DNA of 64,000 nucleotides, taken from positions 1 through 64,000 of the forward strand of contig RSEE01000035.1 in NCBI GenBank assembly GCA_003971905.1, in the 5' to 3' direction. The translations under genes were made by a program, and so were the position numbers. This DNA is from Moniliella sp. 'wahieum' (lineage: Eukaryota). Shown here piece after piece: positions 6,201 to 60,300 of the stretch; the stretch's first letter is position 1, and every line of letters begins with the position of its first letter. The notes under the pieces are model-generated. The model was not told the DNA's origin. It saw nothing but the letters and a program-made list of their open reading frames with translations, and did not search any database.

Positions 6201-7737
6201 AATAGAGGCGTACCCAGCGGGGCCCGACGAGGCAACCAAAGGAGGTAAGGCAAACGGAGAATCCCTTGGACTAGTGAAGCTTGAAGCTTGCAGCCGCAAG
6301 CGTTAGCCGCTCAGGCTGAGCGCTGACAAAGGAAGAAGGGAAGACAGCTTAATTTGAGCGCTGAGCCTCGGCGCTGGCTGATGCGTGATACAGCGGATAT
6401 TCTCGTGGGGGGATCCCTATCACATGCATCAATCAAGGGGGTTGCGACGATCACATGCGATGACGCACAACTATCAGAAAACTGAGCTGAGACTGAGCGC
6501 TGAGGCTGAGAGGCTCAGAAGTGCAGAAGCGCTCAGAAGCGCTCGGGCCTCCTCAGGGCTGGCTCAGGAACCACAGTCCAGAACGTTCAACGTTGCAGGA
6601 AGGTATTGAGAGTCTTCTCCATGTTGCGTCCATTTCATTGACAGAGCTTTAGGCTGGGACAGGGGGAACGCTACGTCTAAACCTAACCGTTCATCTTGCG
6701 GGGGTTACTTAGTCCATTGTATTGAGAGGGTGTCGCGATCGTCTGTGGTTATAAAGGCCTTTTAGGTATTTATCCTGTAATCAACTTTCCTTCGTCTCCC
6801 GGCCCTTCCTGGCCATGTCTACTCCCCTCAACCCACGAATCCTTTTGTGGGTCTACTCATCTTCCCCAGACTCTTAAATAAAAGGAACCAATAAGCATTG
6901 CAGCGGCGTACTCGTCCCACACTCCTTTATAATTCCCACTCGCACTCTGGCGTAAACACAAGTGACAGGCACTCAGGCACACTCCAGCCAAAGAACAATA
7001 GTAACTAGTAACTAGTAACTAGTAACCTGGTACATGGTAGCCCCAATATGATGGCACTTTCGGGAGGGGCAATATTCAATCGGGTATTGCACTTTTGTTA
7101 GATCACCTGATCGATCACGCATGTCAGGGTTAGGTCTTGGCAGGATTAAATAAGGCCTAAAGGCCTAAGGGAGACGACGATGCCGATGACCGATGCAATG
7201 AGCGTCTGAGGTCTACTCTAGTGATCGGCATGCCTGAATGAAGCACTGTGCGAATGCACTGAGAGTACGAAGGTACTGAGAGCACTGGGGCCGATGAGGC
7301 CGATGAGGATCGACGCGCAACGAGAGCCTCTCCCTTTCTTCGTAGGCTGTTTTCACTGTCTCGACTTCGGCGCTGTGTGGTGAAGGTCATCGTGCATGAC
7401 GTCACACAGTGGGCGAGGGGGGGGCAGTAGGTAGTGTGCTGGTGTTGAGGCGGTCAGCTTGAGAGCTCCGACACAACCTGCATGACTGGCAGGACCGTCT
7501 TGATGCGCCTGAGGTCGGGTGGCCCCGTGTGTGACCGAGACATATGGTGACTTATTTGTGACTGCATGACGTGTTGTCGAATCGTTGATGCTCTCGGGCT
7601 CCTTCTTCTGGCCCCCAGGATCAAAGCGCAGTGGCCCCAACAGAAGATAGATATAAGGCCCACCCCCCTGCCCAACCCTCGACACCCGCCAGCGTCTCCA
7701 TCGCCTTCGTTGCTCTCCTCCGTCCACCCTTTCCGTT

Positions 7738-18050: not shown

Positions 18051-18780
18051 GGTTGTGGTGGGGAGTGTCAAAGCGGGGGGAAGAGGGGGATGGATGGGAT
18101 GCAGTGGGACTCGTGGGAAGGGGCGTGTGTGCCTTGAAGGACCCTGGCGCGTCTGTGGCTCTTCTGGGGCCCCTGAGGCGGCCTGTCCAGGGTTAAGATC
18201 CAAGTTTAAGTCTTAACCCTGGCGCAGCACCTCAACGGCAGGGGGCAACGTGGATCCATTGATTGAACGTTGAACGTTCAGTTCAGTTGAACGTTGAACG
18301 TTGAACGTTGCATGGACGTTGCATGGTGTTACTAAGTGCTAACTGAACGTTCAGGGCTGAACAATAATCCTGTGCAAAGCGGCACCGTTCCGCCCCTGTT
18401 CGCCCTACTGTCGCGCCTGTGGACTGCTTTCCCCTGTTAGCATCGCTTCTTCCCCTGCCTTGCTCCTTCAAATTGTCAACTTCTGCCGGCGGTTACGTGA
18501 GCATGTCGGCGCGGGGTAAATTTAAAGTCATTTTAGACCTTCTGTGACTCAGGGACAACGGCCCCCTTGCTGTGGTTATAGCCGCCTAGGCATACTTAGG
18601 GAATGCGTGGGACAACATATCCCATTTCATAGGGGGCTGAGGCGGAAGCGTGGCGAAGCCGCTGCCCGGCAATGCAGATGTGACTGGGGGGAGAGAGTAC
18701 TGAATGCGCGGGCCTGATGCATGGGGGATGAGACGGTGAGTTTATTGAGAATCCAGAAGATCGAGTCAAGTGCATGCCAG

Positions 18781-19042
18781 TGATGAGACCTGGAGTCCTG
18801 AGGCCTGAGGCCTGATGCACCTGATGGTCCTCAAAGGTGATGCAATCGCACTGGGGTTGGTGGTGGTGATCTAAGCCAGCCAGCAACGCCTACAGAGGAA
18901 CATCGAGCAGCGAGTCGCCACCAGTAGGGGCTAAGCTGCAGAACAAGGAAAAAAACAGGAGAGTGAAAATATGGAACTCCCAAGCCTGAGGAGGAACTGA
19001 AGGGACATTGGCCAAAGCACAGCCACCCGATGGCTCAACAGC
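18781..19042 (+). repeat. Dispersed ~260-bp repeat family, copy A
   Basis: Aligns by eye with 46959-47213 (+) and 33355-33571 (-). Shared blocks: tgatgagacctggagtc, caatcgcactg, ctacagagga, gcgagtcgcca, ctgaagggac(a/g)ttggc. Confidence 0.85.
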
Positions 19043-19838
19043 ATGTCCACGCCTCCCCGGAATTGGAATCGGCGATGACATGAATGACACCGTCTCTACT
19101 ATATGTGATGCCAAGCCACAGGGCGGGGAGGGGCAATATCGGAAGACAGGGAACGAACAATGGACGGGGAGTCGAAAGGGGGCACGGCCGCGGATATAGA
19201 AGGGTGGTACAACGGAAGCCGTGAGGGACGCGAGTCAAGCTGCAATAAGCTTGAAGCTCCGAACAATTGTCTCGAATTTGGTTCGGCCGCCTGTCGTATA
19301 GTTTTGCTAACAGGTAACCGGTAACCCCACCAACCCGCCGGCCGGTAACCCCGGTGACATGTGACATGCACAAAGCATATGCGTGATGTGATCGATGATC
19401 GATCATACAGATCATCGAGATCACGGCCACTGGCTAGTGTGTGGCTCCATGATGCATGATCTGATGCATGACACGCGACGCATGTGACATGTGACATGTT
19501 ACGGATTATCGATTATCTCCGCACGGCGAGTTTCGGAATTTGGAGGATGACTCTGTCGACACGGCCCTATACCGTGCGGCCTCTGGCAGAATTCTCACCA
19601 TGCTCTGTCAGGCTCTACCATCGTCATCGCCATCATCACGACCAGCCCTGGTAGCGTATAAAAGACAAGGCCTGGGCGGTACGCTTCGTAATATCAGCAT
19701 CCCCATCGTCAAATACCCGTTGGCACACCTTTGCTCGCTTCTTTCTGGGGTGCGTTGTGGGCCTCCTATCTACCCCCTCCATTCACTTTTTTCTTTGCTG
19801 ATCTCTTCGATGCGAGCAGTCCCAGTATCGTCCGCATC

Positions 19839-20635
19839 ATGTCACTTCCTACCCTGCCGTCCCCGCGGCCCGTGCGCCCGCGCCGCTGCGCCCAGCACAC
19901 AGGGCAAACGCATCGGACCGGCAATTGACTTTACGGGTGCCTTGGCACCCTCCCGTACGGAGCCATTGGTGGGCAAATATGTGAGCTTAGTGCCTCTGAA
20001 CTACGAAGCCCATCGCCCCGACTTGGTCGAGACGCTGTGGAAGATGACGGATGAAGGCCATTGGAACTACATGCCCCTGCATCCGGAAACGGAGGAAGCT
20101 TTCAACGCGTGGCTCAAGGAACGAGAGCAGGACTCGTCCATGTTTACCTACGCCATTCTTGCTTCGCCCGTCCAGCGTGGCGTGCCAGGCAGCAAGGACA
20201 CCCAACAACAAGTGGTGGGTATTATTGCGCTCATGCGTTTCGACTATGCGAACGGAACCGACGAGGTGGGGCATGTGCTGTTCAGCCCCTGTTGCAACGC
20301 ACTCGGTCCTCCACCGAGACAGTCTACCTTCTTCTTTCCCTTTCCTTTGAGAAGCTCAACGTGCGCCGAGTGGAATGGAAGGCGGACAATTTTAATGAGC
20401 CGTCGAAACGAGCAGCACAGCGATTTGGCCTGACGTTTGAGGGGTCTTCTACAACCATGTTATTTACAAGGGACGCTCCCGCGACACGGCGTGGCTGGCG
20501 ATGATTGATGGTGAATGGCCTGTGGCCAAGGCCGCATTTGAGAAATGGTTGGAGCCCGCAAACTTTGACGCTCAAGGCAACCAGATTCAAGACTTGGTCT
20601 CTCTTCGCCAACAGTTGGCCGCGCAACGCGGGTAA
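19839..20635 (+). CDS. GNAT acetyltransferase, RimJ/RimL-like (YIR042C-like)
   Basis: LVGKYVSLVPL, EVGHVLFSP, RRVEWKADNFNEPSKRAAQRFGLTFEG, YKGRSRDTAW, WLEPANFDAQGNQ across frameshifts. Confidence 0.88.
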
Positions 20636-26845: not shown

Positions 26846-28943
26846 GAGGGGGGAAGGAGAGCGGGGCAAGGGAGATGGAGATGGAGGTGGAGATGGAGAT
26901 GGTGAGCATAAGCGAACGCTGGGTCGCGTGGGCTCTAATCGACGGGCTGCTGCGGTGCTAGGATGGAAGGGTCGCTGATGCGATGCTGGCGATGCGGGAC
27001 GGAACAAAAGACGGATGGTGCGGCGAGCGAGGGGTTTGGCCAGCCCCCACTGGCCTAGCCTATGGTCTGGCCTGTTCTACAGCCTAGCTGGCGCGGCCTG
27101 TCGCTATCGTAGCCATAGTAGGAGCCCTCGGGTGCGAACCAACAAGGCGCTGCGAGAGTCGCGAAGGCGGTCACTACGCGTGTGCACACACCCCAGCATG
27201 ACGCATGTGGCGCGGGAGGCCAGAGGGCTCACATGCACATGCGTTCAGGCTCACATTCACAGGCGCTGAGGCGCTCCGGCCTCATTCGGAAGGCAGAGGC
27301 TCTGCTGAGGCTGATGAGCTGGCGCGCTATCAATCACACGCCCAGCGCTCCGATTGAGATCTGACATCTGATCGAGCTGAGTATCTCAGTGCGTGTTGAG
27401 CACTGTAAACGTACTGAGCTCGCTGAGGACGGTGATGCAGGAGGGGCCAGACGGTCTCCAGCACATGGTGTCCATGCTGGGAGACGCACGTCTCCAGCGT
27501 CCCCCGTGTGTGGCAGCGGCGAGAGGGATGCAGCGTGCGTCCAAACCTACCAGGTTGGTGGTCTCACTCCTTGATTTAGCCACTAGTTCAGTGTGCTCCC
27601 AGCGGGCAGATCGCGGGGGCAATGAATTGGTGCGTCATTTTTTGCCCTACATATTTTGCGAGCGTCTCAGAACAGCACCGAGGTACCAAGGGTGCCTGGC
27701 CATTAGATAAGCGCTGCCCGACCTAGAGTCACTAGTCACTAGAAGACCACCCCCAATCAGGTATCTCGCCCGCCACTAGCCATTCCAGATTCTGGGACGG
27801 GTATTGGCCAGCAGAGGGCTGTGGTCTGCTGTGGTGCGGGTGCCGCCAAGGCGGACAGGGGCCTAGCAGGCCCTGCAGGACTTCACAGATCTATGGCAGT
27901 GGCAGACCTCGGCTGCCTGACAGGGGCCCAGACACCCTCTTTGCGGGAGAGCGGGATATGAGGGGGGAGTGTACCCTACTAGTGTATCCCGCGTGCATAC
28001 GTCACCGTGACGTAGCCGCGGTTCAACGTTCAACGTTAACGTTCCGCTTTACGAAATTCAGACGTCCGTTACGCGTTATGGTGAGATCCGTTATGGTGAG
28101 ACAGCAACGTTCGAGTTCAGATCAACTGCAAACTACTCAGGCCTCCCGGAAAGGTCACTTCAAAGGTCACTTCAACCAACAGACGAGGTGACAGTAAAAA
28201 CTCCGCCATTGGTGCAGATGCAAACGTAGGCAGATGATCGATGAAGTCGATGAAGCTTGAAGCTTGAAGCTTGAAGCTTGAAGAGAGGAAGGGCGGAACT
28301 GGTCCGTCGGAACCCGTCCCCGTGTTCGTTAGTCGCCTACCGTCTGTGCTTTCGCCGATCTCTCTCATAGTGTCATGCTGTCATGCCTATACCCTCTGGT
28401 CTGCTGGTGGGAGCCACACCATCATAACCATCATTCTTCTTTTTTAAGGTTGATTCTTAGAGGCTCTTCTCTCCTTCTCTCGTCCACCTCAGCCTAGCAT
28501 GCCATATGGTGTCTAATGGAACAATATATTTGACAACTGCCCTCCTGATTAGTGCAGAGCCAGGAGGATAGGAAGATGAGAGGGGAGAGGAGAGCGAACG
28601 AAACATAGAGGAAAAGGCGGAAGCCACCTGGCCTCTTTTCAACAATTGTCCGATACGATTCCGTCATATCGCCACACGCTGGTCGGTCGTTGCTCGCTAG
28701 GCAACCTGTCATCCATTGGCGGTTGGTAAGAAGATATGTCTTCACAGGTGTCAGAGAGGGTGGGGAGACAGAGAAGGAAACCGTCGCTAAACCCAAAAGT
28801 TCAATGCATTTGTCCTCGAGTGCGTTGGTTGACGATGGTATAGTCGATAACACAGCAACGAAGGACGGAAAGGAGATAGGAGCTGTATAGCGCGGGTGAC
28901 CAAACAATATTCATCTAAGTCCATCTTTTCTATAGGCGGTATT

Positions 28944-30359: not shown

Positions 30360-30500
30360 TGGGTGATAAGTTCCTTCCAGCGTGGAATGGTGGACCGGTG
30401 GCTAAGGTGGCGACGGGGGAACGGTGGCTACGGGGGCGAGCAAGCACCAAGCACCAAGCACCTGAGGCCTGACCGGGCCGTAGGCCCGGTGGCCCTCTAG
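30360..30500 (+). mobile_element. Helitron-like 3' terminus
   Basis: Hairpin accgggcc-gta-ggcccggt (30472-30490) ends 6 nt before terminal CTAG, which is followed by T. About 140 bp is homologous to 44393-44515 (inverted). 5' end not located. Confidence 0.72.
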
Positions 30501-32013
30501 TATAGAGATGATCTCGACGATATCAGAAGATGACATTGATATCGGAAGATGGCATTTTGATACGGCATTGATATATCGGAAGATGACATCGGAAAAGATG
30601 CTGTGACATGTGTGAGAGACACCACAGAAGAAGCAGCCACAGGCGACTCGGGCCGCAGCGCTAACGAGACAATAGCATACATTCGTTTAGCCTATAACGT
30701 GCTTTTTGACGGAGAGTGGAATGGATCCGTTAGGTCAATTGAAAACGCTTTGAAGAGTTGTGTGAGGACAGCAAGGCAGGGGCAGAAGTGGTGGGGATAC
30801 AATCAGGGGGAGAGGCAACCTGGAGGCGCAACAAGGAGGGGCGGACCACAGAGGCGGCCGAAAGGGGGGGCCGCGCACAAGAGCATGAGTCCGTTATTCG
30901 CGCAAATGTCTTCATCGGCGGTCGTAACAGGCCGTAGCAGCCGCACCGTAATAGTCCGAACGCTCTATGTAATCGGCTGCTGATGATTCGGGTTAAAAGC
31001 CTTTTCTTGTTGCCGACGGAATCCGGGCCTGTGTAGGCCTAATTCGCGGCATCGTTAAGAACATGGGACTGTGGATCCACCTCATATGCTTTTCAATTGA
31101 AGCTTGAAGGTTGAAGCTCTTCCCAAGTCAACTTCACAGCGAGATGGGCGATGCCAGACTTCTGTCTCACAGACGAGAGCGTAGCAGAAGTCGCTGACGT
31201 GTGACATGTGACATGCGATTAAAGATTCGCGATGCTGATGGTGACGCGGTGACGCACAGCCATCGGTCAACTCGGTCAGTTCGGTCAAATGACCGGCGAT
31301 AAAACAGCCGTTGTCACCGACCCAGTAGATGCATCTACGACCTTCTCCGACTCCTCACTTGAATAACCCCTGCCAACAAAACAACATAAGCCAGGGACGT
31401 TGCAGTGGGACAGAGGAAACGCTTGGTCCACCAAGTTGGGGACAATCTGGGGCAGCACTGGGGCAGCCTACGCTGGCGGCGTGGAATTTTCGGCTCCGAC
31501 GTGTGGCTTGTGGCGCTGTGCATCACGATGCGTGACGCGTGACGTGGGCTGAAGCAGGCTGAAGCAGAGGCACTCAACAGTGGTAACTCCGCTCTACGCC
31601 CGTCCATTCCATCCTCTTCCCTCGCCGATGAATTCGTTGAACGCAGGTCACACGTCACATTATACTTTGCTAGTTACCCACGTAACAATTGGATTGTTGA
31701 TCATGCATCATTGACATCATTGATGCATGATGACCGCAATACAATCGAACCACCCTGTTGCCCGCTCCCTTCGGCGGTCAACAGGCCCTCAGGATGCCGC
31801 CTCTCACGTCCTCAGCAATGCTGGTGGCAGCCTGTGAGGCCAAGCCGCACGGGCAGTGGTACCCGGCCCAGGCACTAACATCGTGACGCTGTTACGCTGT
31901 ACAGGTGCCTCACAAGCCAGGCCGGAAAGTATTTAAAGGCCTTTGTGTTTCTGTCAGCTGGTGACCACCACATCGCGCATCTCCTCCCACCTCTAGAGGC
32001 AACTACTTTCCAC

Positions 32014-33185
32014 ATGTCCAACAAAATCCTTACCCCGCTCAAGCTTGGAAGTATTACGGTGTCCAACCGTATCTTCCTTGCTCCGCTCACTCGGACCCGG
32101 GCGACGGAAAGCCATGTTCCGACTCCTGTGATGGGGGAGTACTATGGTCAGCGTGCCACGGCCGGCTTGATCATCAGCGAGGGAACAGCCATCAGCCCAA
32201 TCGGTGTGCCTAACCCCAACATCCCTGGATTTGGACGCAGGAGCAGATCGCCGCGTGGAAGCCCATTACCGACACTGTCCACCAAAAGGGGGGTAAGATG
32301 TTTGCCAGCTTTGGCACGGAGGCCGGATGTCGCACTCCTCCCTCCTCGGAGGACAGACCTGTCTCTTCTTCGGCCACTACGCCGTCGTTGAAGGTCTTTA
32401 CTCAAACTGGCTTTGCTGATCCAGAGCAAGCGCGGCCGTTGACTATTGCTGAGATCGCCGCTACTGTCAAGGACTACGCTCAGGCCGCCAAGAACGCGAT
32501 TGAAGCTGGATTCGATGGCGTGCAGATCCATGGTGCCAACGGTACGTGCTGGATACATTGTTAGGATCTTCATTTTACTAAGCACTTAACTGACCACGTC
32601 TTCTGTGTAGGCTACTTGATCGACCAGTTCTTGTGCACCTCTACCAACACTCGTACCGACGAATACGGTGGCAGCCCGGAGAAGCGGGTGCGGTTTTACA
32701 GTGAGGTAGTCAATGCTGTCGCTGCTGCCATTGGCGGAGACAAGGTTGGCACGCGTTTCTCTCCCAATGGAGACTCGCAGGGCGCGATCGACGACCAGTA
32801 TGAGAAGACGTACCCGCTTGCTGCTGCGGCCGCTCGGGAGGCGGGGACTGCTTGGATCGAGCTGCGTGAGACCAAGGACAAGAACGCCTTCTGGGACCAG
32901 TTCACTGGTGAGAAGAAGGGCGACATGGGGCAGGCCCCCATCCATGACCTGATGCGCAAGGCGTTCCAAGGCCCTGTGTGTGAACGAATCGTTCACTGCC
33001 GAGACGGCTAAGCAGGCTGTTGACTCGGGCGTCGCTGACGCCGTTTCGTGGGGTCGGTACTACATCTCTAACCCGGACTTGGTTGAGCGCATCAAGCAGG
33101 GCAAGGAATGGGCTCCCCAGCGCCCAAGGAGACGTGGTACGACTCGTCGGCGAAGGGCTACACTGACTGGCCTACTGCAACTTAA
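32014..33185 (+). CDS. Old Yellow Enzyme / NADH:flavin alkene reductase
   Basis: [55 protein letters not shown] (intron 32542-32610), [24 protein letters not shown]. Confidence 0.95.
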
Positions 33186-33354
33186 TAGCGCTTCCAACTG
33201 CCGAGACATTATCTGCAATCGGTCTGCTGCCGTCTGATACGAGGGCAGGAGGTGAAATGAAGGCTGTAATCAATTGCTTTTCTTGGACTTGTGCGCCCGT
33301 ATTGCAGAGTGAGAAGCTGTAGCTGTTTTCGTATCACTTCCTCTTTCTATGTGT

Positions 33355-33571
33355 TGAGCTAGGTGGCTCGTGCTTTGGCCAATGTCCCTTCAGCTCCTCC
33401 TCAGCCTAGGAGTTCCGCGGTTTCCCCTCTCCTGTTTTCCTCGTCCAGCAGCTTAGCCCCTGATGGCGACTCGCTGCTTGATGTTCTTCTGTAGGCATTG
33501 CTGGTGGCCACACTACCACCACCAGTGCGATTGCATCACCTCGAGGACCATTAGGACTCCAGGTCTCATCA
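33355..33571 (-). repeat. Dispersed repeat family, copy B (inverted), ~110 bp upstream of the tRNA
   Basis: Reverse complement aligns with 18781-19042 and 46959-47213. Confidence 0.82.
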
Positions 33572-33679: not shown

Positions 33680-33765
33680 GCCTCGCTATTTCAATCGGTA
33701 GAATTGAGACTCTTATGCTGAAGAGGTCGATCTCACGGTTGTGGGTTCGAGTCCCACGTGGGGCG
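33680..33765 (+). tRNA. tRNA-Lys(CTT) with 14-nt intron
   Basis: Acceptor stem GCCTCGC/GTGGGGC; anticodon arm TGAGA-CT-CTT-A-[intron 33716-33729]-A-TCTCA; T arm GTGGG-TTCGAGT-CCCAC; oligo-T Pol III terminator immediately after. D arm slightly irregular. Confidence 0.92.
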
Positions 33766-43003: not shown

Positions 43004-43125
43004 GGAAGGAAGGAGAAGGAGAAGGAGAAGGAGAAGGAGAAGGAGAAGGAGAAGGAGAAGGAGAAGGAGAAGGAGAAGAGGAGAAGGAGAAGGAGAGAAG
43101 GAAGGAGGGAGAAGGAGAAGGAGAA
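43004..43125 (+). repeat. (GAGAAG)n polypurine microsatellite
   Basis: About 120 bp of near-perfect hexamer repeat. Confidence 0.95.
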
Positions 43126-44392
43126 CACAGCATCACCATTGGCATTGTAGCCTTTAGGTGAAAGCTTGTAACGTTCTGGATACACAGCGGACATCCGTGT
43201 TCCACATTATCAACACTACCTTAGGGTAATTGAGCGAGCAGCTGGTCTCACCGTACCATGATAACGTTCCAGTTTAGTATAATCCGAAGGCAGATCGAGG
43301 GTGCCTAGCATTTGTATGCAAGAACCCCTACTAGTCTGAAGATGATGTTTTTATCACGGGAACTTCGCCGTATGGTGGACGTTGAACCCATTGTGTTTTG
43401 AGTCTCAGAAGAGGGGAGAGACTTACCCATTTCCCCTGGGTGGTTGGCACTTTCGATACATGAAGGTGAAATGGGGAAGACGGATTGACGGTGCTGTGTG
43501 AATTACGCGAGAGCCAGCGGAGTGCGCTGGCTCTTCCCTTGCCAATCCCCATACCTGAGTTGCGGGCCGGGTGATCTTTGGCAAATATCCAGAAGAGCAA
43601 ATCTCTCTTCCAATGTGGGTCGCGTGTGTCAAACAGAGAGAGCCCCTCAAACCCCCTTTCGTTTCCCCGCCCCCCAACAAAACCCTTTTTGGCTCTGGCA
43701 CACCCGACGCGCCCGAAGCAAGCTAACAATCTCACTTACATCCACTATAACCAAACGAAAGAAAAAGATGAGCCAAAAATCCAATGCCCACTCAGAGGTT
43801 GGTCGTATAGAACAGACAGGAACCTGGCGCCGATCCTATATAGTATGCGCGCCCAACGACCGAGAAAATCAAAGACCTTACCCAGATGGCTTTCTCATGC
43901 ATAGCGTGTGGTTGACGGAGAGAAATAATGTGCGCATGCGGGTAGTAAGCACAACCCTCTCTCACACTTTGAGAAGCATATACCATCAACCTCACTGAGC
44001 CGAGGCTCCAGGTATTCCGCGGTAATTCCGTACCCCTTCCGTGGTATTCCGTAGTATGTCGTGGTATGTCGTGGTATGTCGTGGTGAATCCGTGTCATTT
44101 CGTGGCCATCGGGTTCTTGATCTTTTTTTCGTTCCGTGGTATGTTGTGGTGTTCCGTGGTATTCCGCGACATGTGGTGGTAGTCCGCGACATGTCGTGCC
44201 ATGTCGCGGTATGTCGGAGTGTTCCGTGGTGGGTTTTGCGAGGCGGCTAGAAATTCAAGGAAAGAGTCAGGCTCAAAAATCTCGACCTGGCAATCGGTAA
44301 TCAAATTTCATTACTGCAATGAAATGTTGAGAAAGAGCAACACTTGCGAGCGTGCAAAAATTTCGACCTGGCAATCAAGTAATGAAATTTCA

Positions 44393-44620
44393 CTAGAAGA
44401 CCACCGGGCCTACGGCCCGGCCAGCTGGGGCTTCGCCCCAGCTTGGTGCTTGGGCTTGCTCGCCACCGTAGCCACCGGCCCACCGTTCCACGCTGGAGGA
44501 TTTTTATCACCCACAAGGAGACCACCGGGCCGACGCGAAGCCCCAGCTGGTGCTTGGTCGCCACCGTAGCCACCGTGGAACCTTCGCCACCTTAGCCACC
44601 GTTCCCCCTTCGCCAACACT
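44393..44620 (-). mobile_element. Helitron-like 3' terminus (second copy, with partial tandem duplication)
   Basis: Reverse complement ends ccgggcc-gta-ggcccggtggtcttCTAG|T. Homologous to 30360-30500. The block is partly repeated at ~44520-44610. Confidence 0.7.
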
Positions 44621-45129
44621 GACACTTGCGAGCGTGCGACTTGGGAGCACACTCGGAAGAAGAATCGTTAGCCCGGCGTTGGGCTTGGAGAAAAAATGGT
44701 AGAGTGCAAAAGGGCAGCAGCACTCTCACTCAATCCTTTTCAAGGCTATTAAGAGCGCTTAGCACCTTATACACCTACAATAGCAGTCTTCTGCGTGTCT
44801 CTTTTGCACCTATGCCAACAGCTTCTGCTCGTGAGCCTTCGTCTTCGATCGATCCCAGTGCTTGATAGCTTCCAGTTCCACTGTGCATTTCTGATGCCGA
44901 TCTCCATTTGATTTCCGTTTCGTTTCACCAACAAAACAGTACCCAACAAAGGCAGCACGCATATTGTTTTGCCCTTCTTTTTCCTCGGGAATAAAATGTA
45001 CCTTGGCACACGCAACACTTATAGTGTTTTTTGTCAGACACCAAGTTCGGCACCCAATGGGTGAGGGTAAATCCAAACCTCCTCGTCAGAAACGTCGTCA
45101 TCCGCTGCAATTCGTGCTAATGCATCCGA

Positions 45130-46310
45130 ACTCAGAACTTCCTTCTCAAGGGTATGTGTCCCATGACCCACCCAATGTCGGCAAGTGGGACGACAATGTT
45201 GTTTACTGATGCGAACGTCGCTCTGTGAAAGCCTTGTTCATCGCGTGGTAGAGACGCATTACCTTCAGCATCAATCGGATGAGTTCTACCAACAATGTAG
45301 TATTCGGAGCCCGCTTCATCGGTCTCCACCCCAATGTAGTAGTCAATCAACATGAAAAAGTGCCCATCGTGCGCCAATTGCTATACAATGCCTGCATTTG
45401 TTGTGAGTAGTTGCACACAGTGTCCTAGACGGGACGAGGCATTCTGACCCTGTTGCCCTCGAACACGTTGCCTGTTCTCATTTTTGGCCCCCACTCGGCT
45501 ACTGCCCAGATCGATAAATGGGCGGTAGGGTCAATGTTGAACGAGCACAGCAACGCCGCATCCCCCCTTGCACCATCGAGCCCATCAATAATAGCTTCTC
45601 GTTTGTGATTCAACCCAACCGAAAGTGTGGTCATAGCTTGGGGAGCATGGAATCCATGCGAATGCCAACCAAGTTATCCTGGTTCCTCCTGCTCGCCTCG
45701 TTAGCAAGGACAGGATACGGTTTGGTAAACGAACGGATATGGCGGCCCAACCATCCCTGTTCCCATTCTGCCGGGGCGGTCCATATCGCCTGCCAATTGC
45801 CGTATCTCCACATGTTGTCAGCCCAATGAAGAGTGTTGTGCACCGAGATCGAATGTGGTTGATCTCTTCGTTCAGACCGTTTGGAACAGTGAAGTCGTGA
45901 AACCGTGACAAAATGGCAGGGCCGTTGTTCGGAGACGTTCGACGTCGGTAGCATACATTTCCGTTTGACAAACAGCCTAAGCATCACGCTCCCACCAGAT
46001 CGAGTATCTGCTGAGGCAGATAATGCAACTTGACGAACGGATAAAGCATGCAACTCATATTGACTGCAATCTCAAACATGCGCATGCCGCTGTTACAAGC
46101 AGAACCAATCGAACGAGGCACTCCACTACAAAACGAAGAAGGAAGAAACCTAATCGACCTGTGTTTCAAGGTTAGCTCATTCAAATCAGTATAAGAAACA
46201 CAACTGTTTCGGGAATGAGGACGCACACTTCATCTGAAACTCGTTAAAAAGGTCAACATGAGCGGCACCCAAATGTATGGGCAATCTTGGATCACGTAGA
46301 CCGTTCTTCT
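45130..46310 (-). pseudogene. Unidentified, degraded intron-containing coding sequence inside the TIR element
   Basis: Successive coding-like frames (e.g. HDGHFFMLIDYYIGVETDE, REAIIDGLDGARGDAALL) and a gtgcgt..gctaac..cacag intron-like segment. No family recognised. Confidence 0.35.
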
Positions 46311-46958
46311 CAGATTGAGAAAGGTGGTGTGCATGGGCTCAACAGGATGAAAGGAAGGGCACATATGATGATGAGAGGCGCTTTCAGGTTGAGGTAATGT
46401 CGGCCATCCTGTATCTGCCTTGAAACAATTCTGGCTTGCGACTGACCCATGGTCTTCAAGCTCTTGTGCGTTGTACTCTGCAGTTTGACCCAGTCTTCGG
46501 GTATGCGCAACGGAGAATGGATGGTATCAATATCATCGCTTCCGTCGCCCAGCAGCGGGCAATTTCAGAGGGATGTGTTGTCGTTGGCCAATATACCCCA
46601 CCCCCATGCCTCTTGCGCCCAACAATATCGCAAGGGCGGCACGCTCGCTCGGGACACACTTGCCATAGATGTGCTTGCTGTGCTTTAGCGTCAGCGATGT
46701 TGTACATTACCGTGGTCTGAAGAGTAAACGACTCCAGGGGGCGGACCAGGGGGCGGACCAGGAGGCGGACATGATGATGGAGAGGACCGAGGGGAAAACC
46801 TGGCGAAGACGTGGAGAGTGGACCATCATGAGGGCCAGAGGGTGATATGTACTCCTTTGGAGCTCCGCGGACGTTCCCGGGGCCTCATTTGCCGCATCGC
46901 ACACGGCTATATACTCCACAGGAGCGTACATGTGCCGGCCCTCGGATGGGTGGACTTT

Positions 46959-47213
46959 TGATGAAACCTGGAGTCTGGATGGTCCTCGAGGGTGATACAA
47001 TCGCACTGATGGTGGTGGTGGTGATGGTGGTCTAAGTCAACCAGCAACCCCTACAGAGGAGCATCAAGCTTCAGACAGCGAGTCGCCACCAGGGGCAAAA
47101 CTGCGGACCAAGGACAACCAGGAGGGAGGAAACAAAACGGAACTCCTAGGCCGGCTTGAGGAGGACCTGAAGGGACGTTGGCAAAAGCACGGGCCACCCG
47201 GTGGCTCAGCAGG
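46959..47213 (+). repeat. Dispersed repeat family, copy C
   Basis: Aligns with 18781-19042 and the reverse complement of 33355-33571. Confidence 0.85.
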
Positions 47214-47685
47214 ACTGTTGGGACGTAATAAATGGTACGTTTAGAGCTCTTTGAGGCGCCAGGAGCTCTCGGAGCTCGGTGGCGTGTGGGTATGCTGCGG
47301 AGGTTGCCAGGGGCTGTTCCCACACGACAGCGCAGGGCTAATATGCTGAGCTGTGGGGGGTCCGTGCGTCGGCGTTACTGGTCTGTGCACCTTCCCACCA
47401 GAACCACACTGCTTTTGCTCTGTTGCATCAGTCCTCCTCTTACCGCCCCTTTCACAGTTGAATGATATATATACCCCCCCCCCCTCCCCCCCTCCACACC
47501 GGTCTCTCTTCCCCCTAACAACCGCCTTCCCGACATGCCTATCACTATAATTTCCACACTTCCTGCAGACCAACCGAAGACCAAAACTGGGGTAAGGTGC
47601 TAACCAAAGATCTGTCGGCATCTCAACAACTGATGCCTGCTGTCCTGTTGGCGACCAACCAATCGTCCCAGTACTGTCTTTGCTA

Positions 47686-47806
47686 GGTGTACTGACCTGC
47701 TGGGTGTACTGACCTGCTGTTGGGTGTACTGACCTGCTGGGTATACTGACCTGCTGCTGGTACTGACCTGCTGGGAGTACTGATCTGCTTCTTGGGTACT
47801 AACCTC
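47686..47806 (+). repeat. Minisatellite, ~7 copies of 17-20 bp gggtgtactgacctgct(gtt)
   Basis: Direct reading; copies are contiguous with no unique spacers. Confidence 0.9.
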
Positions 47807-48900
47807 TTCCTACAAGTGGGTACTTACATGCTTGGGCACTGACTTACATGGTATGCATGTTGGTATCATATATCAACCTCTGATGTGCTTGGTATGTTAA
47901 CCCGTACTTCCGCAGTGAGAATTACCGATAGCATGTCAAAGGGAGCATGCCACCATTTGTGATATCAAGCAACGGTACGATCGATTGCTGTGTGGATGGA
48001 ACTTGCGCGCGAGGCGGCCCCATTCTGCCTGTTCTGCCCCTTCCTGTTGCGCCTTCACGCTGCGTTTCCCTGATTAACGGCCTGAGGCCTGATTGCATCT
48101 TCTCCACCAGTATTGCCTTGCCTTGCTTGCCTCCCGTAGCACACCTTAGTAATACAATCACTATTAGCCCAACAGAGATGTCCCATATATCTAAAGGATC
48201 TAAAGTAACACAACTGCCAATGAGGCTAGTGAGGGCCGCATATAGGCCCCCAAAGTATTGAGCAATGTAACCCTGTACCGATACATTGCATTATAAGCTA
48301 ACCCTAAGGCTTATAAGCTAACCCTAGTGTAACCCTAGGACGCCATTTCCATTCCGTGGTAACCCGTGGTAACCCTTGGTAACCCGTGGAGTTCTGTGGT
48401 GTTTCCGTGGTTGAAAAAAAATTCTAACCTGTGTGGTGTGTCTATGGATTTCGTTCTCACTTTTTTTCAAGATGGAGGGGCGCACTTATCCCATAGAATA
48501 CAACAGTATGAACACGGAACGGGCACGGAAGAGGTACGGAAGAGGTACGGAAGAGGTACGGAAGTGGTACGAAGGGCACGGAAGTGGTACGGAAGTGGTA
48601 CGGAAGAGTACGGAAGTGGTACGAAATGGGCGGAAGTGGTACGGAAGTGGTACGGAAGAGGTACGGAAGTGGTACGGAACGGGCACGGAAGTGGTACGGA
48701 AGAGGTACGGAAGAGGTACGGAAGTGGTACGGAAGAAGTACGGAACGGGCACGGTATGCCACGGAATCCAAACTACGGAATACTACGGAATACCACGGGA
48801 GGGGTACGGAATCACCGCGGAATACCTGGAGCCTCGGATCAGTGAGCATCAACAGTACACCATATATAGCGTGCTCAATGATCGGAGTGTGGTGTACATG

Positions 48901-51900
48901 CCATAGCTAATCGAAATTTCTAGCCCAGAACCTTGCCGGCCACACCACAAGCTTGTCTTTAGATTTGAGGGGCACAACCTTGTCACAGCCTCGCCAACAC
49001 AGCTAGCCCCAACCTCTTGGACCACACTGCGGCAAGGCCGCCCAGCGAGGTTGTCCCTAGATTGCTGCCTATAAAGCTCGTCACAACCTTGCCCGCTATT
49101 CTAATCACAATATATTGTGAACGGCGGCCAGCCTCGAGCCATCTTAAAAAAGATGGCCCACCCACGAACTAACCTGAGGTTTCTCCAGCCAACAGTAGGA
49201 ATTGGCCGTTGCACCATTGGAGCCTAAGACTCCCGCAGCAATTTGGCAATCTTTGGGCAGCCACACGTGCTGTGTCCGCTTTCAGCCAAATCGCTAAAAA
49301 CTGATAGACTGATGGTGTAGAGTATACATCAACAGTGGTGACTACCATCATTAGTAGCCATTCGGGAAATATCTAAACATCCATTGCGGATTGTACTGCC
49401 TCCAAAACATCGTCGGCAGAAGGGACATTCTCGCCCTCGACCGCCCAGTCCTGGGCAAAAGCCAAGTCCGCAAGTCGCAGAATATCGGTGTGGGGAGAGA
49501 CAGAGTTGACAAAGTGGTTGAGCACGTAGCGCTGCACCGCCGACGTCCCAGACAAGTTGTTGTGCTGGACCCCATCGAACGTCAAGCCAGTGGTTGTATC
49601 CGTAATGCTGTTGGGGACAACCCGGCACTTGGCCTTCACGCAATTGTGCTGGACGTTAAGCGGGCCAAAGATGGTGTGGATCTGTGAAGCCGGAATGTAA
49701 GTCATGCGTCGGGCGGACGCGCGCGGTAGCTCCAGGCCTCGCATGTCATATGCCGAGTCGATAGGCATGATGCGAGCCAAAGCGACCTTGACCCAAAGCA
49801 CAGGGAGCACAAGGTTGGAACCAGTCCTCGCTGCTCCCGACCCCCCCTCGCGAGTCGGATTGGCCCGCGGGTGCACAGCAACCATATTATTAGGCCGTTG
49901 GGCGGCAATGTGTTCTATCCGGCCAATGGAGAAGGGCGGTGCATCAGGATTCTGGGCATGGCGGGGTGGGGGACTTCACCAATATCCTGTTGGGCAATAA
50001 GCACCCAGTCCCCCCTGGCACAAAGCTGGCCATGCTGTACGCGGACCAACGGCATGTCGACAATATCTTCGACCGGCCCAGTGGCAGAACGCCCCTCTGC
50101 TGTCACTTGTTCAGGAAGCCCAACCTTGTCGTGCACCGATATGACTTTGGCCTTAGCCACAGTCTGGATCGAAGCCGGACACGATCCAGCGCTGGAAGGG
50201 CTGTTGCGGCCCATACCGGGTGCGGGAGGGACTTGCCACACACTGCCGAGCCCTTGGCCCAAGAGCTGAATCGTCGTGCCAGCCTGAGGCGGCGCAACAT
50301 TCAATTGCAAAGCTGCTCGGCCCCTGCCGATCCAGACGTCTGCGGACAATTTCTTGGTGTTCCACCGGGCAGACCCTGTTCGCCTCCTCCCCTTCATCGT
50401 CAGGGGTTGTATCGCGGGACACGAGTTTTGCACGCGGCATGTCGATTGCCCGCCCTCCACATAGCAGGTTTTGCAGGTTCTCCTGGGCTGCTACCTTGTA
50501 GTTCAAGTCGCGGCAGATATCTTTGCGGTTCGTAAATATGACGGCCTTGCGCATGACGCGGACAAACTCCTCCTCACGCTGCGTGTCAGCGTTCTTGAGA
50601 GGACCCCACAACAGCGCCTGCTGGGAGAGGTGACTCAGAAGGTGGAACTTGGGGCGATGAACGAGCATGGCCGGGTCGATGGCAGCGATGGCCATGAAAT
50701 GTGAATCACCGCCTTGTCAAGCAGTTCCTGTGGGACATATGTACGGGGCAAAATGTAAGCTGCGAACTAGGACTATAGCGAAGATGATCACGGGCCTAGG
50801 AGAGCGATAGCAGTTTCAGACGTACGCCATATGTAGCCCGGTCTTGAAATGCGAAGCCATCGATGTAGCAAAGCCACTTAATGCGTGCGGCGGCCACAAT
50901 GCACTTGCGGACATTCTCCAGCCTCTCAATCTTGCTCAGAAGTCTCTGTCTCGCCATTTCCGTGACGCCGGGCTTGGTGGAGTCCAACCGTAGCATGGCC
51001 GCCAAGTTGGGCAGCACCAGAGGGAGAGTCTGGCACAATATCTTGCAGTCGACCCCCGTGACTGAGCGCATGCTGTGAACCACTTTAGTGCCATTGAGCC
51101 GTCGACGCACCGATTCCATGCCCCGCGAGTTGAGCGAATCCAGCCACAGCGCTAGCGAGGACCCCTTGTCGAAGTTCGAGTCCGTCAGCAGCTCGATCGA
51201 GGCCTTGACTGGTCCAAGGAGAACTGTGTGCATGACGTCGATCGCCAGGCTCTTGCCGACCGAGAAACTCGAGCACCCCTGCCATTCGTGGACAGTCAAA
51301 AGGGGGTTGAACACGTAGCCGTTGTTCTTGAACTCATCCAGCAGCTCACGAACGTCGGAGTCCAAATTGGAAAGCAGCCTCTTGCGCTTCTTGCCATTCG
51401 TCGCCCCTGCTGAGTCCTCCAGAGTCTTGCGGAACTTGAACAGGATAAAGGATACGTCTTTCATGTACTTGTCGTTAACCCCGGTCTGGCTCCCCCGGTC
51501 GTCGACACGGCCGTCGTTCTTGACGACCATGTCGAGTTGGTGATCGACTTCGCGCCTAGTTTCGATACTTGAACGTAGATCGCCTCCCATCTTGATGTGT
51601 CCGCCGGTAATGGTCAGTCCCATATTTTGATATGCACAGCAGTAACACCAGTGGTGTCGTATACGCACCAGACAGTCTGCCACGTTCTCCGCCAACGTGT
51701 TCGTTCCCCGTTGCCGTCCGCAATCGCAAAAACGGCAGCACACGTGGGCAGTCATGCCCATAATGGAAGCCATCTCGTTCGCGGCCACGTTGTCGCCCTT
51801 TATCATCCCGCAACGGGCTGTACAAGGATCCATCCCTCGGTGGTCGAATCCCAGACAGGGATGAGCTCTTCGTGATCCTGCCTGCAAGTTCGAAAAAGAC

Positions 51901-53805
51901 GTTAGCATGCTGCTTTTGCCCAGGAATCACGGCGACTTCAAAGGCAACTTGGCTTAGATTGCGATACTCACTTAGGGTTCTAGCTGTTTTACCAACTGCT
52001 CACACAACGGGAGGAGAGACTTGGCCGTTTCCGATGCAAAGAGGAAAAGGTTCCTTGCCCATCTAGACTGCGACCGTGAAACGTGCATGTTGCCCAGCAG
52101 CATGCTGTTCAGAGAGCTTGGCCGATTGGACACATTGTCTGCAAAACCATCAGCCCAGCCCACTAGCTGGAGACGGACCAGAGCTCGGCCACAGGCCTTG
52201 GCTCGAAGGGGATTGACGCTCTTCCCAATTTCCTCACCGTCCCTTGTTCCTGTGTCGTACCAGGATGTGGAAGTCATCAGTCAACCCGACAAGAATTGCC
52301 GCTGCGTGAAGAGCAAGAAAACTTACTAATGGTATAGTCGTCGTAGAGGCGCAACTTGGTTATGTCCAACTGAGTAAGAATGAAGGCGCGTGTCCTGTTG
52401 CCGGTGAACTTCAGCAGGTTGGACGTCTCGTCTTGGACCAGGTCGATTCCGATCCCGTGCCACGAGTCGCTATCAGCGTCGTGTTGCCACAAGACGGGAA
52501 AGATAGGCGCGAAATGCTGACCAGGTGAACAGATTCGCCAAGGTACATGTGAATGGCCAGATCGCGTGGATGCTTATTGAGCATGACCATCGGCTGAGTC
52601 CTTGTGCCGATCAGATCCCATCGTCCCTTGTGTGGTTCTTCAATGAACCCGTCCTTGAGGGCCTGGACAATCGCCCTGAGCGACCAGGGATTGGGATACT
52701 GTGACATCTTGGAGCGGATGGACGAGTTCGAGGACATGTATGAGGTGGAAAATGCGGTCTCGCCCGCGAAGGACCCAATGTATATCGTCTCCTGATACAA
52801 ACTGCTCGATACACACGAGGGCTGGCACACCGTCTCGATTGCCTTTTAGTTTTGTTGAGCGAGTAAAGAGAGGCAATTTCCCTTCGCTCTTGACCGCGAC
52901 TTGTGCGAATGCGGTTCTCTCGCAACGAGACGGTTGGACTGGAGTATCGTGCTGTATATAGCTGCTGTCACGACTATCTCAAGTGCGTAGCTTAAAAAAA
53001 TCTATATATATACTAAACGCTCAGGCTGCAGGTGGGCGCCTTGAGCTGGCGGTGGCGTGGGGGGGCAACACTGGCGCCATGCGGGTGGACCACCGGTGGG
53101 CCACCGGTGGTTGCGCCTATAACCGCACGGATCATCGTTCGCCGTATGGTTGCGGGACTCATTCTCCCTCTCGAACGCGATGACGCTTCGTCCCCACGCC
53201 GCAAGTTGTATGGCTCTTGTATCTTTGCCCTTCGATCCCTATCATCTCCGTGTCCCCATGATGTTTTTGGTCTGCGATTAAACGACGAAGGCAAAATTCT
53301 GTGGTTGCCGCCGTCCCGAGGCTCCTCGAACAACCTGCCGTTGCCTTGGCGCTCCTCTACGTCTCTGTGTCTAAACAACCATGGCAATGCATGCTTTTAA
53401 AGATAATCCACTGCCTGATCTGATAGCATCGTGGCACCCTAGCCGCCACCCTAGCCACCACCCTAGCCACCACCCTAGCCACCACCCTAGCCACCGCCCT
53501 AGCCACGCCCTAGCCACCGCCCTAGCCACCGCCCTAGCCGCCAGTCTAGTGAAAAATCTGTGGCTAGCCTTGCCACCAGCCTGCCAGCAAGGCTGCGGAC
53601 TGTCCGGGGATAGGTGGGGGGTAGCTGGGGGTAACCTGGGGCCAAGTTGTCGGGTATAGATTGTCTCGACCTTGGCGACCATCTTGCGCAAGCTTTTCTT
53701 GTACAGGGTTGTGGCACTTCTAATCATAGACTCACGGTATCAAATTCTTACCTTGAGGCGAGATCGGCGGCAACGTTGTGACTAGAAATTTCGATTAGCT
53801 ATGTG
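48901..53805 (-). mobile_element. CMC (EnSpm/Mirage-like) DNA transposon, ~4.9 kb, probable 2-bp TSD TG
   Basis: TIR C(A)CATAGCTAATCGAAATTTCTAG at 48901 and reverse complement ending at 53805. TG flanks both ends. Subterminal (CCCTAGCCACCA)n at 53436-53545. Internal transposase. Confidence 0.87.
49373..52950 (-). CDS. Fungal EnSpm/CMC-type transposase, divergent, with introns and frameshifts
   Basis: Ordered family motifs WADGFADNVS, GDNVAANE..CCRFC, FNPLL..IDVMHTVLLGPVK, RPKFHLLSHL..WGP..TQREEEF..TNR..RD, NVQHNC..C. 5' end uncertain. Confidence 0.8.
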
Positions 53806-55796: not shown

Positions 55797-56184
55797 AAAG
55801 GGAAAGGAAAGGGAAAGGGAAAGGGAAGGGAAAGGAAAGGGAAAGGGAAAGGGGAAAGGGAAAGGGAAGGGAAAGGGAGAAGGAAAGGGAAAGGGAAAGG
55901 GAACGACTGTTGCTTTGAGATCAAAAAAGGTGACACAAGAGTATTGCGAGAGAGACTGATTTTTGGTCTTGCGAACTACATGCACCATAGCAATGATATC
56001 TGAGGGGGGAAAGGGAAAGGGAAAGGTAAAGGGAAAGGGAAAGGGAAAGGAAAGGGAAAGGGAAGGGAAAGGGCCGGTGATACGACTGTTGCTTTGAGAT
56101 CAAAAAGGTGACAGCAAGAGTATTGCGAGGAGAGAGACTGATGTTTTGGTCTTGCGAACTACATGCACCATAGCATGATATCTG
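55797..56184 (+). repeat. Two (GGGAAA)n tracts, each followed by the same ~100-bp unit (tandem duplication)
   Basis: Tracts at ~55797-55902 and ~56004-56072. The unit acgactgttgctttgagatc..gatatctg occurs at ~55903-56002 and ~56082-56184. Confidence 0.92.
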
Positions 56185-56355: not shown

Positions 56356-56620
56356 CGTTGCACCGTGGCTGCTCTGAGTAGTAGCACTGCCCTATAGTTG
56401 GAGATTTTGGTCTAGACTTGGCCTGCGCCGCGCCCCCACGCGCCACCTCCACTTTATTCCAATGGGAAACCGCCCGTGTATAGTAGACACCGCTGGCGCA
56501 TCCCTCCGCTGTTCTTCCTTACCACCCCCACTTCGCTCAACTCGTTACCTCGTTCTCGATCATGCTTCTGGTAGCTCAGATCTCAGACCACGCATCTGCC
56601 TGCCGTAGTACGTCGCTGCA
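56356..56620. mobile_element. Short solo LTR related to 29988-30239, 4-bp TSD TTTC
   Basis: cgttgc (TG changed to CG)...gctgCA, with TTTC on both sides (56352-56355, 56621-56624). Shares internal motifs with the 29988 copy. Confidence 0.6.
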
Positions 56621-56874
56621 TTTCACTCGCACTTTTGTCACGGCGTATTCAGACAACCGCTTTATTAGGGCTTTTGCGATCTATTAGGTACAATGCGATC
56701 AATGGGTCGATGAGCGCTCCAAGATCGTGTGTGCTGGAGGGGCGTCTTTGGGGGTGCTAGCAATGCATGGGTGTGGCGCGTGGATCGTGACGCGTGGCTG
56801 GTGGAGGTTGGAGTGGCAATTTAAGTTTAGGTGATTGTGGCTGTAGCCACAGCCGCAGGGCATTCTAGAGCGGC

Positions 56875-59800: not shown

Positions 59801-60300
59801 GAGGCGCTGTGATACATGTGAGCGCGCTGAGGCCATAAGCTTAAGTTTTAAGAGCTTTAAGATCTAAGATCTAAGAAACTGGCCACGGTTATGTGGTGAG
59901 CAGTATGATTAACGGCCTTAAGGTCTTGGTCGCGCGGTGAGGGCCTGCCTCAGGCGGTCGGCCGGTCAGGAACCCTCAAAGACTCAGATCGCGAGATCAG
60001 AGCGGGGAAGAGATGACGCGTGATGTGTGAGGAGCGATGCATGATGCATGATGCTCTGATGAAGTCGAAAACGCGTTCCCGCGTTTATGAGCGCAGAGCA
60101 GGCATCATGCATCATGCATCTCGTATATATCATCGATCACTAGTCACTAGTCACTAGTTGCTAGTCACTGATCTCGATCATTGATCACCAACACTATGAC
60201 ACATTAAAGATTGACGCGTGACGTATTAACCCATCACTCGATCGTAGTGTGACCGGCAATACTCTACAGTACTAAGTACGCAGTCTGAGTGCTAAGCTAA
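56875..60300. repeat. Dense field of period-7 palindromic micro-arrays (ANNNNT-N)n
   Basis: Examples: (AAGCTT-C)n 57635-57660, (ATGCAT-G)n 58118-58143, (ATCGAT-C)n 58183-58211, (ACCGGT-T)n 59047-59065, (AGATCT-A)n 59858-59875, (ACTAGT-C)n 60137-60160. Confidence 0.9.

Follow-up and report, generated by a model that had tools for sequence, protein, structure and literature searches.

How does one copy of a dispersed repeat come to hold four CCTGA cores in a row, where its two relatives hold a single 7-bp site each? The locus in question, positions 18797-18826, lies in a 64,000-nucleotide stretch of DNA from Moniliella sp. 'wahieum' (GenBank assembly GCA_003971905.1, contig RSEE01000035.1, positions 1 to 64,000 of the forward strand; hereafter the window). 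An initial annotation had proposed that arrays of this kind are footprints of transposon excision at a 7-bp target. Our analysis points to the same answer: the 23 bp by which this copy is longer are probably several scars, stacked on one site, from the excision of a cut-and-paste transposon that duplicates a 7-bp T-N-A target, a reading to which we assign a probability of roughly 0.7. Within the window it is supported by a fixed register, by joining nucleotides derived from the flanks, and by a site that is still occupied.

The site reads CCTGAGG (18797-18803), CCTGAGG (18804-18810), CCTGATG (18811-18817), CA (18818-18819) and CCTGATG (18820-18826), with GGAGT on its 5' side and GTCC on its 3' side. 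The first four pieces form the 23-bp extra segment (18797-18819, plus strand), and the fifth is the resident 7-bp target, of the form NNTNANN (18820-18826, plus strand), which is followed by the unaltered flank GTCC. The units are joined as initially described: GG in the segment is complementary, in inverted orientation, to the CC that comes after it, and CA likewise to the TG that comes before it. The pattern GGAGTCNNNATGGTCCTC matches exactly two short sites in the window, compared with 0.12 expected: 33543-33560 on the minus strand, with CCTAATG, and 46970-46987, with CTGGATG. Both belong to a dispersed repeat of about 230-260 bp, for which self-BLAST returned three copies: A (18820-19041), B (33352-33571, minus strand) and C (46959-47212, plus strand). 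Pairwise identities are 81% for A and B, 77% for A and C, and 76% for B and C. With the alignment added to the self-BLAST, the MITE-like (miniature inverted-repeat transposable element-like) copy A extends over 18783-19041 on the plus strand, with ends TGATGAGACC ... GGCTCAACA. Copy B carries one unexpanded site, CCTAATG, at 33549-33555, and copy C carries one site, CTGGATG, at 46975-46981. In a three-way alignment, B and C share a single 23-column gap that falls exactly on the 18797-18819 segment, so that the extra length of copy A is borne out by the reading of the site, the pattern search and the alignment alike. The repeat itself resembles an old MITE, with imperfectly inverted ends (TGATGAGACC ... 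GGCTCARCA). The sequences GGACTTT and GGACTGT border copy C; around A and B, decay has gone too far for the length of a duplication to be read.

Because the three copies are paralogues about 20% apart and not alleles, the polarity of this difference rests on parsimony, by which the 23 bp would be one gain in copy A rather than two identical 23-bp losses. Three paralogues cannot prove polarity, and the long form could in principle be ancestral, with B and C having lost the segment. This would require two independent deletions with identical ends, and A and B are the closest pair (81% identity, compared with 76-77% to C), yet it is B and C that both lack the segment; moreover, the segment is built of copies of the adjacent target. 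We therefore regard ancestry of the long form as exceedingly improbable, and gain in A is the outcome that the comparison favors. Two other repeat families were also aligned; their copies are too diverged for insertions and deletions to be tabulated. 

Chance does not account for the site at 18797-18826, which is one of a class of sequences spread over the whole window and 40-fold above expectation. Among 138 rows returned by Tandem Repeats Finder, 41 have a period of 7 (the next commonest period, 9, accounts for 17 rows); the consensus is a perfect odd palindrome NNTNANN in 32 of these 41, and 22 are 100% pure. The window holds 47 perfect period-7 arrays with two or more copies of the unit, compared with 3.2 in shuffles, the expectations for arrays being drawn from 30 second-order Markov resamplings. 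Perfect odd palindromes with T as the third and A as the fifth base (T3/A5) make up 33 of the 47, whereas 3.4% of 20,000 random 7-mers from the window have this form. An alternative account must be considered here: the arrays could be ordinary minisatellites, in which slippage expands palindromic, hairpin-prone heptamers and the 23 bp are slippage copies with point mutations added. Periods other than 7 likewise give more perfect arrays than chance would (12 versus 0.8 at period 8, and 8 versus 0.3 at period 9) and 14 of the 47 period-7 arrays lack the palindromic TNA form, as slippage would allow; palindromic arrays could, in addition, stabilize slipped strands.

Slippage, however, gives no reason for the composition of the core. 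We counted 10-mers in which a T-n-A is joined through a 4-nt palindrome to a second T-n-A with the same center, and found 85, compared with 2.1-2.3 expected and a maximum of 6 in 40 resamplings. The same 10-mer built on the other 15 core-base pairs occurs 1-12 times versus 1.6-5.6 expected, i.e., at background. Because the excess is confined to the T..A core, T3 and A5 are a true sequence requirement, and the 7-bp TNA register on which the initial proposal depended is indeed a fixed one, with T at 3 and A at 5 (85 versus 2.3 expected). Hexamer palindromes lead to the same class: they are in excess for the A....T type alone, strongly when T stands at -2 and A at +7 (97 versus 7.2 expected) and modestly with one or neither of these flanks (88 versus 61.6 and 142 versus 119.9, respectively). 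At period 7, same-center T-n-A pairs number 136 versus 36.3 expected, while the inverted-center control gives 33 versus 36.4. Periods 8 and 10 with palindromic junctions show no excess over background, and an excess of T-n-A pairs at period 6 is non-palindromic and seems unrelated. The consensus target is roughly N-R-T-S-A-Y-N.

What is the source of the palindromic junctions? To answer this, we chained the 85 junctions into 68 chains and compared the outer dinucleotides (X1X2 of the left unit and X6X7 of the right unit) with the junction itself. Agreement was found on both sides in 18 chains, on the left alone in 17, on the right alone in 18 and on neither in 15, which amounts to 71 of 136 outer dinucleotides compared with 1/16 expected. 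Thus the initial observation that the joining nucleotides are inverted complements of a flank holds window-wide. Since 35 of the 68 chains are one-sided, the duplicated targets must often have been non-palindromic, with the junction being the inverted complement of one flank; in these chains the junction appears to have been copied from one flank while the other copy lost 2 nt. Among the 68 reconstructed targets, complementarity is present in only 26 at X1/X7 and in only 31 at X2/X6; X2 is preferentially R. Examples of such chains are AGTAACT x3 followed by AGTAACC (7000-7027), GATGAAG followed by CTTGAAG x4 (28249-28283), GGTTACC x2 followed by GGTTATA (59047-59067) and TTTAAGA followed by TCTAAGA x2 (59856-59876).

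One-sided chains could also arise by decay of formerly perfect arrays. We rejected this source because it requires 28% divergence per site, which would leave 4% of arrays detectable, and 22 of the 41 arrays are pure. Nor do the chains look like faithful copies. Among the 136 same-center period-7 pairs, 85 are palindromic, and the remaining 51 are about the background number. Identical non-palindromic TNA pairs number three, one of them a phase-shifted reading of a palindromic array, which leaves two true cases. Faithful direct duplication is therefore rare, and a flank-derived palindromic joint is the rule (85 palindromic versus 2 exact non-palindromic pairs). Slippage copies should be faithful, yet in 35 of the 68 chains the junction is the inverted complement of one flank, and the periodic run in these one-sided chains is only 12 nt long; exact duplications of non-palindromic TNA units, which slippage should also produce, amount to those two.

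A second, smaller class has the spacing of the CA-containing joint of copy A. T-n-A cores placed 9 bp apart, with a 4-nt palindrome adjoining one core, occur 14 and 13 times, compared with 2.0 and 2.3 expected. Nine pairs of exact TNA 7-mers are separated by a 2-nt spacer, and in 5 of them the spacer is complementary, in inverted order, to the dinucleotide beside it (p = 0.0025): GATGAGG-CC- at 7293, CCTGATG-CA- at 18811, GATGAAG-TC- at 28240, TCTAAAG-GA- at 48190 and CATAACC-GG- at 59628. The remaining 4 of 9 do not fit the complement pattern. Slippage gives no reason for complementary 2-nt spacers and, at 18797-18826, would require an extra T-to-G change and leave CA unexplained. With the T..A-only core and the one-sided junctions, these features make slippage a quite improbable general explanation of the arrays.

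The excision of a transposon from a duplicated 7-bp target could produce both classes in the following way. Excision would leave both copies of the duplication, each closed by a covalent hairpin, as in hAT, Transib/RAG and MULE elements. A host nuclease would then open the hairpins about 2 nt from the tip, generating 4-nt 3' overhangs, of which the left would consist of X6X7 plus their inverted complement and the right of the inverted complement of X1X2 plus X1X2. End joining that keeps one overhang and trims the other would add 7 bp with a 2-nt exchange (CCTGA-GG-CCTGATG); joining that retains a full copy together with the 2 added nt would add 9 bp (CCTGATG-CA-CCTGATG). At a target that is already a perfect odd palindrome, the two overhangs would be complementary and could be ligated cleanly, and every scar would restore TNA targets. 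Repeated hits would therefore be possible and arrays could grow, and repeated use of palindromic sites would explain why the interior units of long arrays are palindromic while their outer ends are not.

Applied to copy A, this scheme would resolve the extra segment into two +7 scars and one +9 scar on an ancestral CCTGATG, which sum to exactly the 23 bp observed. In each +7 scar the left copy would have been trimmed to X5 and GG added as the inverted complement of CC in the right copy; in the +9 scar the left copy would be complete and followed by CA, the inverted complement of its own TG. The details of the site can be compared directly: in the chain 18797-18817 the outer dinucleotide agrees with the junction on the left side alone, and in CCTGATG CA CCTGATG the two units are identical at 7 of 7 positions, with the spacer derived from the left copy. 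The earlier suggestion of up to three rounds of insertion and excision thus fits the arithmetic, with the reservation that slippage, and not a third round, could just as well have produced one of the +7 units. A second case had been proposed in copy C, at 47062-47075 (plus strand), where CATCAAG CTTCAGA accounts for a 7-column insertion in the three-way alignment. The 7 bp are indeed private to copy C, and the two TCA cores meet at a palindromic junction, AG-CT; the outer dinucleotides, however, match neither flank, so that this case stands in part.

The excision reading calls for an element, and we searched for sites that are still occupied, as identical 7-mers bounding inverted termini. With the TNA requirement one such site was found, compared with 0 in each of 10 resamplings: an element of 4,856 bp (43991-48846) bounded by the target-site duplication CATCAAC, which has T3 and A5, on the left (43984-43990) and on the right (48847-48853). 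A relaxed search for further occupied TNA sites in the window returned this one element alone. Its 78-bp terminal inverted repeats (43991-44068 and 48769-48846) are 91% complementary and start CTCACTGA, so that the element begins CTCAC and has CT..AG ends. The element also has subterminal arrays of the TTCCGT/ACGGAA type (44040-44198, 48354-48400 and 48514-48745), which are likely transposase-binding repeats. These arrays consist of 10-11-bp units (ACGGAAGTGGT x21.5; CGTGGTATTT) and are a class distinct from the 7-bp scars. The open reading frames (ORFs) of at least 90 aa in the element contain no Pfam domain, and we therefore take the element to be non-autonomous. Copy C of the dispersed repeat sits within it. 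Metagenome scans with the terminal repeat of the element and with the gapped pattern of the A/B/C site gave 0 matches each.

The occupied site also bears on a further alternative, in which no mobile element is involved and a site-specific nuclease cuts T-N-A sites, with a 7-nt stagger or through hairpins, so that repair leaves the duplication. Variants of this idea invoke a transposase of this type that has been domesticated, or integration that aborts and is at once reversed. The ratio of scar chains to occupied sites (at least 68 to 1), the lack of a transposase of a suitable family in Pfam scans of the window and the strong clustering of scars in a few intergenic tracts all speak for such a nuclease. 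On the other hand, an element with exactly such a duplication is present at 43991-48846, scars should outnumber copies for any cut-and-paste element with frequent excision, and no candidate nuclease was found. We consider this explanation unlikely, and retain excision of a 7-bp-duplicating transposon as the preferred reading.

The distribution of the scars raises the question of function. Scar density is about one chain per kb, concentrated between genes. A first cluster of TNA heptamer scars and arrays spans 6273-7162 and includes the AGTAACT chain at 7000-7027. A second, around the 18797-18826 site, spans 18262-19517 between a DUF2838 gene on the minus strand and an ORF on the plus strand (19495-20430), with 12 junctions in the 18-20 kb bin. 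The third (27353-28283) contains GATGAAG TC GATGAAG followed by CTTGAAG x4 (28240-28283), which reads as one +9 scar and four +7 scars on a single non-palindromic target. A fourth (30461-31732) lies upstream of an Old-Yellow-Enzyme-type gene (31879-33008, plus strand), and the densest (56574-61137) lies upstream of a forkhead gene (61528-62313, plus strand), with 33 junctions in 56-62 kb. The arrays might be selected cis-regulatory elements, tandem palindromic sites that a dimeric factor binds in promoters. In favor of this are the dyad symmetry of the units and the intergenic position of the clusters, several of which are located upstream of a gene. The composition of the junctions argues otherwise. 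No position other than T3 and A5 is fixed; the junctions use 15 of the 16 palindromic tetranucleotides, and the center, G or C in 69 of 85, takes all four bases. Because nearly every tetranucleotide is used, the junction palindrome is not a fixed protein recognition site, and no single recognition sequence can be defined. In addition, half of the chains are palindromic at the junction alone, and the 18797-18826 array sits inside a degenerate dispersed repeat. A regulatory origin is thus very improbable. As separate observations, 6273-6296 and 56901-56928 carry an identical irregular array end (...TGAAG CTTGAAG CTTGCAG), through coincidence or a small duplication, and two purine-rich hexamer arrays, (AAAGGG)n within a 179-bp tandem duplication at 55797-56184 and (GAAGGA)n x19.5 at 43009-43125, are ordinary low-complexity satellites without the TNA register.

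It is instructive to compare the scars and the element with known systems. In hAT, Transib, RAG and the MULE Muta1, hairpins form on the flanking DNA and are opened by host factors and end-joined, as reported in one account (PMC5499845). Like the window scars, hAT excision (Ac/Ds, Tam3, Hermes) leaves both copies of the duplication, with joint nucleotides that are inverted complements of the flanks. Subterminal repeat arrays are known in Ac, and those of the element at 43991-48846 recall them. Yet hAT elements normally duplicate 8 bp, at the target nTnnnnAn, and have short terminal repeats that start YARNG; here we find 7 bp with T3/A5, a 2-nt exchange that keeps the period, and 78-bp repeats that start CTCAC and thus depart from the short YARNG ends. 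A 7-bp duplication fits hAT7 alone within hAT. Arrays of several units, at a density near one scar chain per kb, are not known from hAT hosts. The coding joints of V(D)J recombination (RAG) and Transib likewise show palindromic additions templated by a hairpinned flank, and off-center hairpin opening at coding joints parallels the opening about 2 nt from the tip that the window scars suggest; unlike the scars, V(D)J joints contain no target duplication, and Transib duplicates 5 bp. 

Other families share the target or the duplication size. The T-N-A core is the target of PIF/Harbinger elements, which duplicate these 3 bp alone, unlike the 7 bp in the window. The Galileo/P superfamily is reported to combine 7-bp duplications with long inverted repeats. 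Excision of P-type elements leaves nucleotides of the element ends, whereas the joint nucleotides in the window follow the flank. MULE duplications are 8-11 bp. In the account of Muta1 (PMC5499845), MULEs form flank hairpins and have long terminal repeats and subterminal repeats that are required for transposition; more than 90% of Muta1 excisions in yeast are precise, unlike the window scars. A survey (PMC12730594) gives 3 bp for Harbinger duplications and 2-5 bp for the CMCT clade, and lists two families with 7-bp duplications in Basidiomycota, hAT7 in Pucciniales and Kyakuja in Agaricomycotina. The same survey describes Kyakuja-1/2_LB as having 5'-CA..TG-3' termini, no terminal inverted repeats and a 7-bp duplication (PMC12730594). 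Judged by that description, our element shares the duplication length with Kyakuja and differs in its CT..AG ends and 78-bp inverted repeats. KDZ elements of Cryptococcus are reported in a preprint (10.1101/2024.08.15.608186) to have long inverted repeats and 8-bp duplications. A case from the Agaricus mating locus was considered and set aside as unrelated, having a 9-bp duplication (PMC10051438). In a literature search that covered subscription journals poorly, nothing came to light on palindromic arrays of TNA heptamers, and nothing on the footprints that fungal 7-bp families leave.

Which transposase could have acted here? Pfam scans found no domain of hAT (BED, RNase-H or dimerization), KDZ/CxC or MULE transposases. 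They covered ORFs with a minimum length of 90-100 aa at 1-56.5 kb and of 200 aa beyond, apart from 28 ORFs (100 aa or longer) at 39.2-41.1 and 59.4-63.6 kb. The initial attribution to hAT or RAG/Transib therefore holds as a statement on mechanism, i.e., on flank hairpins and P-type joints, and not on family, since no transposase of these families was found in the ORFs scanned. The only transposase-like relic among the scanned ORFs is that of a large gene in two frames at 50366-52217 on the minus strand. A HMMER search returned 13 distant homologues of 211-1266 aa; word-index protein searches with the relic ORF (50796/50799-51926) gave no match, and neither did a comparison of the relic profile with solved structures. 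Nine of the 13 homologues, scanned at E 0.001 or better, contain no meaningful Pfam domain, and weak Transposase_21 (tnp2) matches occur in 4 of the 13 members of the family. The family consensus is D..D..CxxC..HxxxH..E, with motifs DDxSG, DNPM, CRxC, KPKxHLLxH and ERFES. The relic probably belongs near EnSpm/Plavaka and has no connection with the 7-bp scars; for that group the survey (PMC12730594) gives duplications of 2-3 bp, and we rejected the relic as the source of the 7-bp duplications on these grounds.

The window begins with a telomere-type repeat, (CCCTAA)n at 1-27, and everything described here is therefore subtelomeric. The genes are eukaryotic and arranged in short exons (glycogen branching enzyme, NMNAT, glycine-cleavage H, NRPS-like, Old Yellow Enzyme, NDUFS3, Sec22-type SNARE and forkhead), and from this gene content, with a weak DUF6699 match, we take the window to be the end of a fungal chromosome, probably that of a basidiomycete. 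Rfam and tRNA scans of the window returned a single match, a tRNA-Lys (CTT) at 33680-33765 on the plus strand, about 110 bp from repeat copy B; at 86 nt, it is probably intron-bearing.

Several points weigh against the excision reading. One occupied site faces at least 68 scar chains, Pfam scans of the window revealed no transposase of a hairpin-forming family, and the element termini (CTCAC..., 78-bp repeats) fit neither of the two fungal 7-bp families, hAT7 and Kyakuja, as these are described in the survey. We saw no excision event, empty allele or sister-strain locus in the 64-kb window or the two metagenome scans. In 15 of the 68 chains, among them CATCAAG CTTCAGA, the junction matches neither flank. 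Of 38 perfect TNA arrays, 13 end at phases 3-4, with an extra partial unit, and only 3 begin at phases 4-5, the mirror positions; this left/right asymmetry on the plus strand (Fisher p = 0.0098) counts against the proposal because a strand-symmetric model does not predict it. Some of the odd array ends are inverted unit copies, which form longer palindromes, e.g., CTTCAAG x3 followed by CTTGAAT at 57635-57662. Two steps of the scheme, hairpin opening 2 nt from the tip and joining that keeps one overhang and trims the other, are our own inference, and classic Ac/Ds scars mostly change single nucleotides. Some growth of the arrays may be slippage of hairpin-prone units, the polarity at 18797-18826 depends on comparison of three paralogues about 20% apart, and a subtelomeric window may be unrepresentative of the genome as a whole.

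That excision can leave palindromic nucleotides in its scars is textbook knowledge. What we did not find described in the literature searched is the 7-bp TNA register, the 2-nt exchange that preserves the period, the stacking of scars on one site, and a density of about one chain per kb between genes. A broader proposal, which we offer tentatively and regard as possible at best, is that one 7-bp lineage, hAT7- or Kyakuja-like or a domesticated descendant, acts as a standing intergenic mutator, whose scars outnumber its copies by more than 60:1, are palindromized 2 nt off the hairpin tip, and breed arrays. If this were true, excision and not slippage would be the main source of the commonest minisatellite class of the genome, and the excision chemistry of a family without biochemistry could be read out. 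For the excision reading itself, the consequences are similar in kind. If it is correct, palindromic heptamer arrays, the commonest tandem-repeat class in this region, would be a fossil record of transposition, from which sequence alone would yield the target consensus N-R-T-S-A-Y-N, the 7-bp size of the duplication and a flank-hairpin chemistry with opening offset by about 2 nt. Excision scars could then seed and extend minisatellites and reshape promoter-proximal DNA, at about one event per kilobase.

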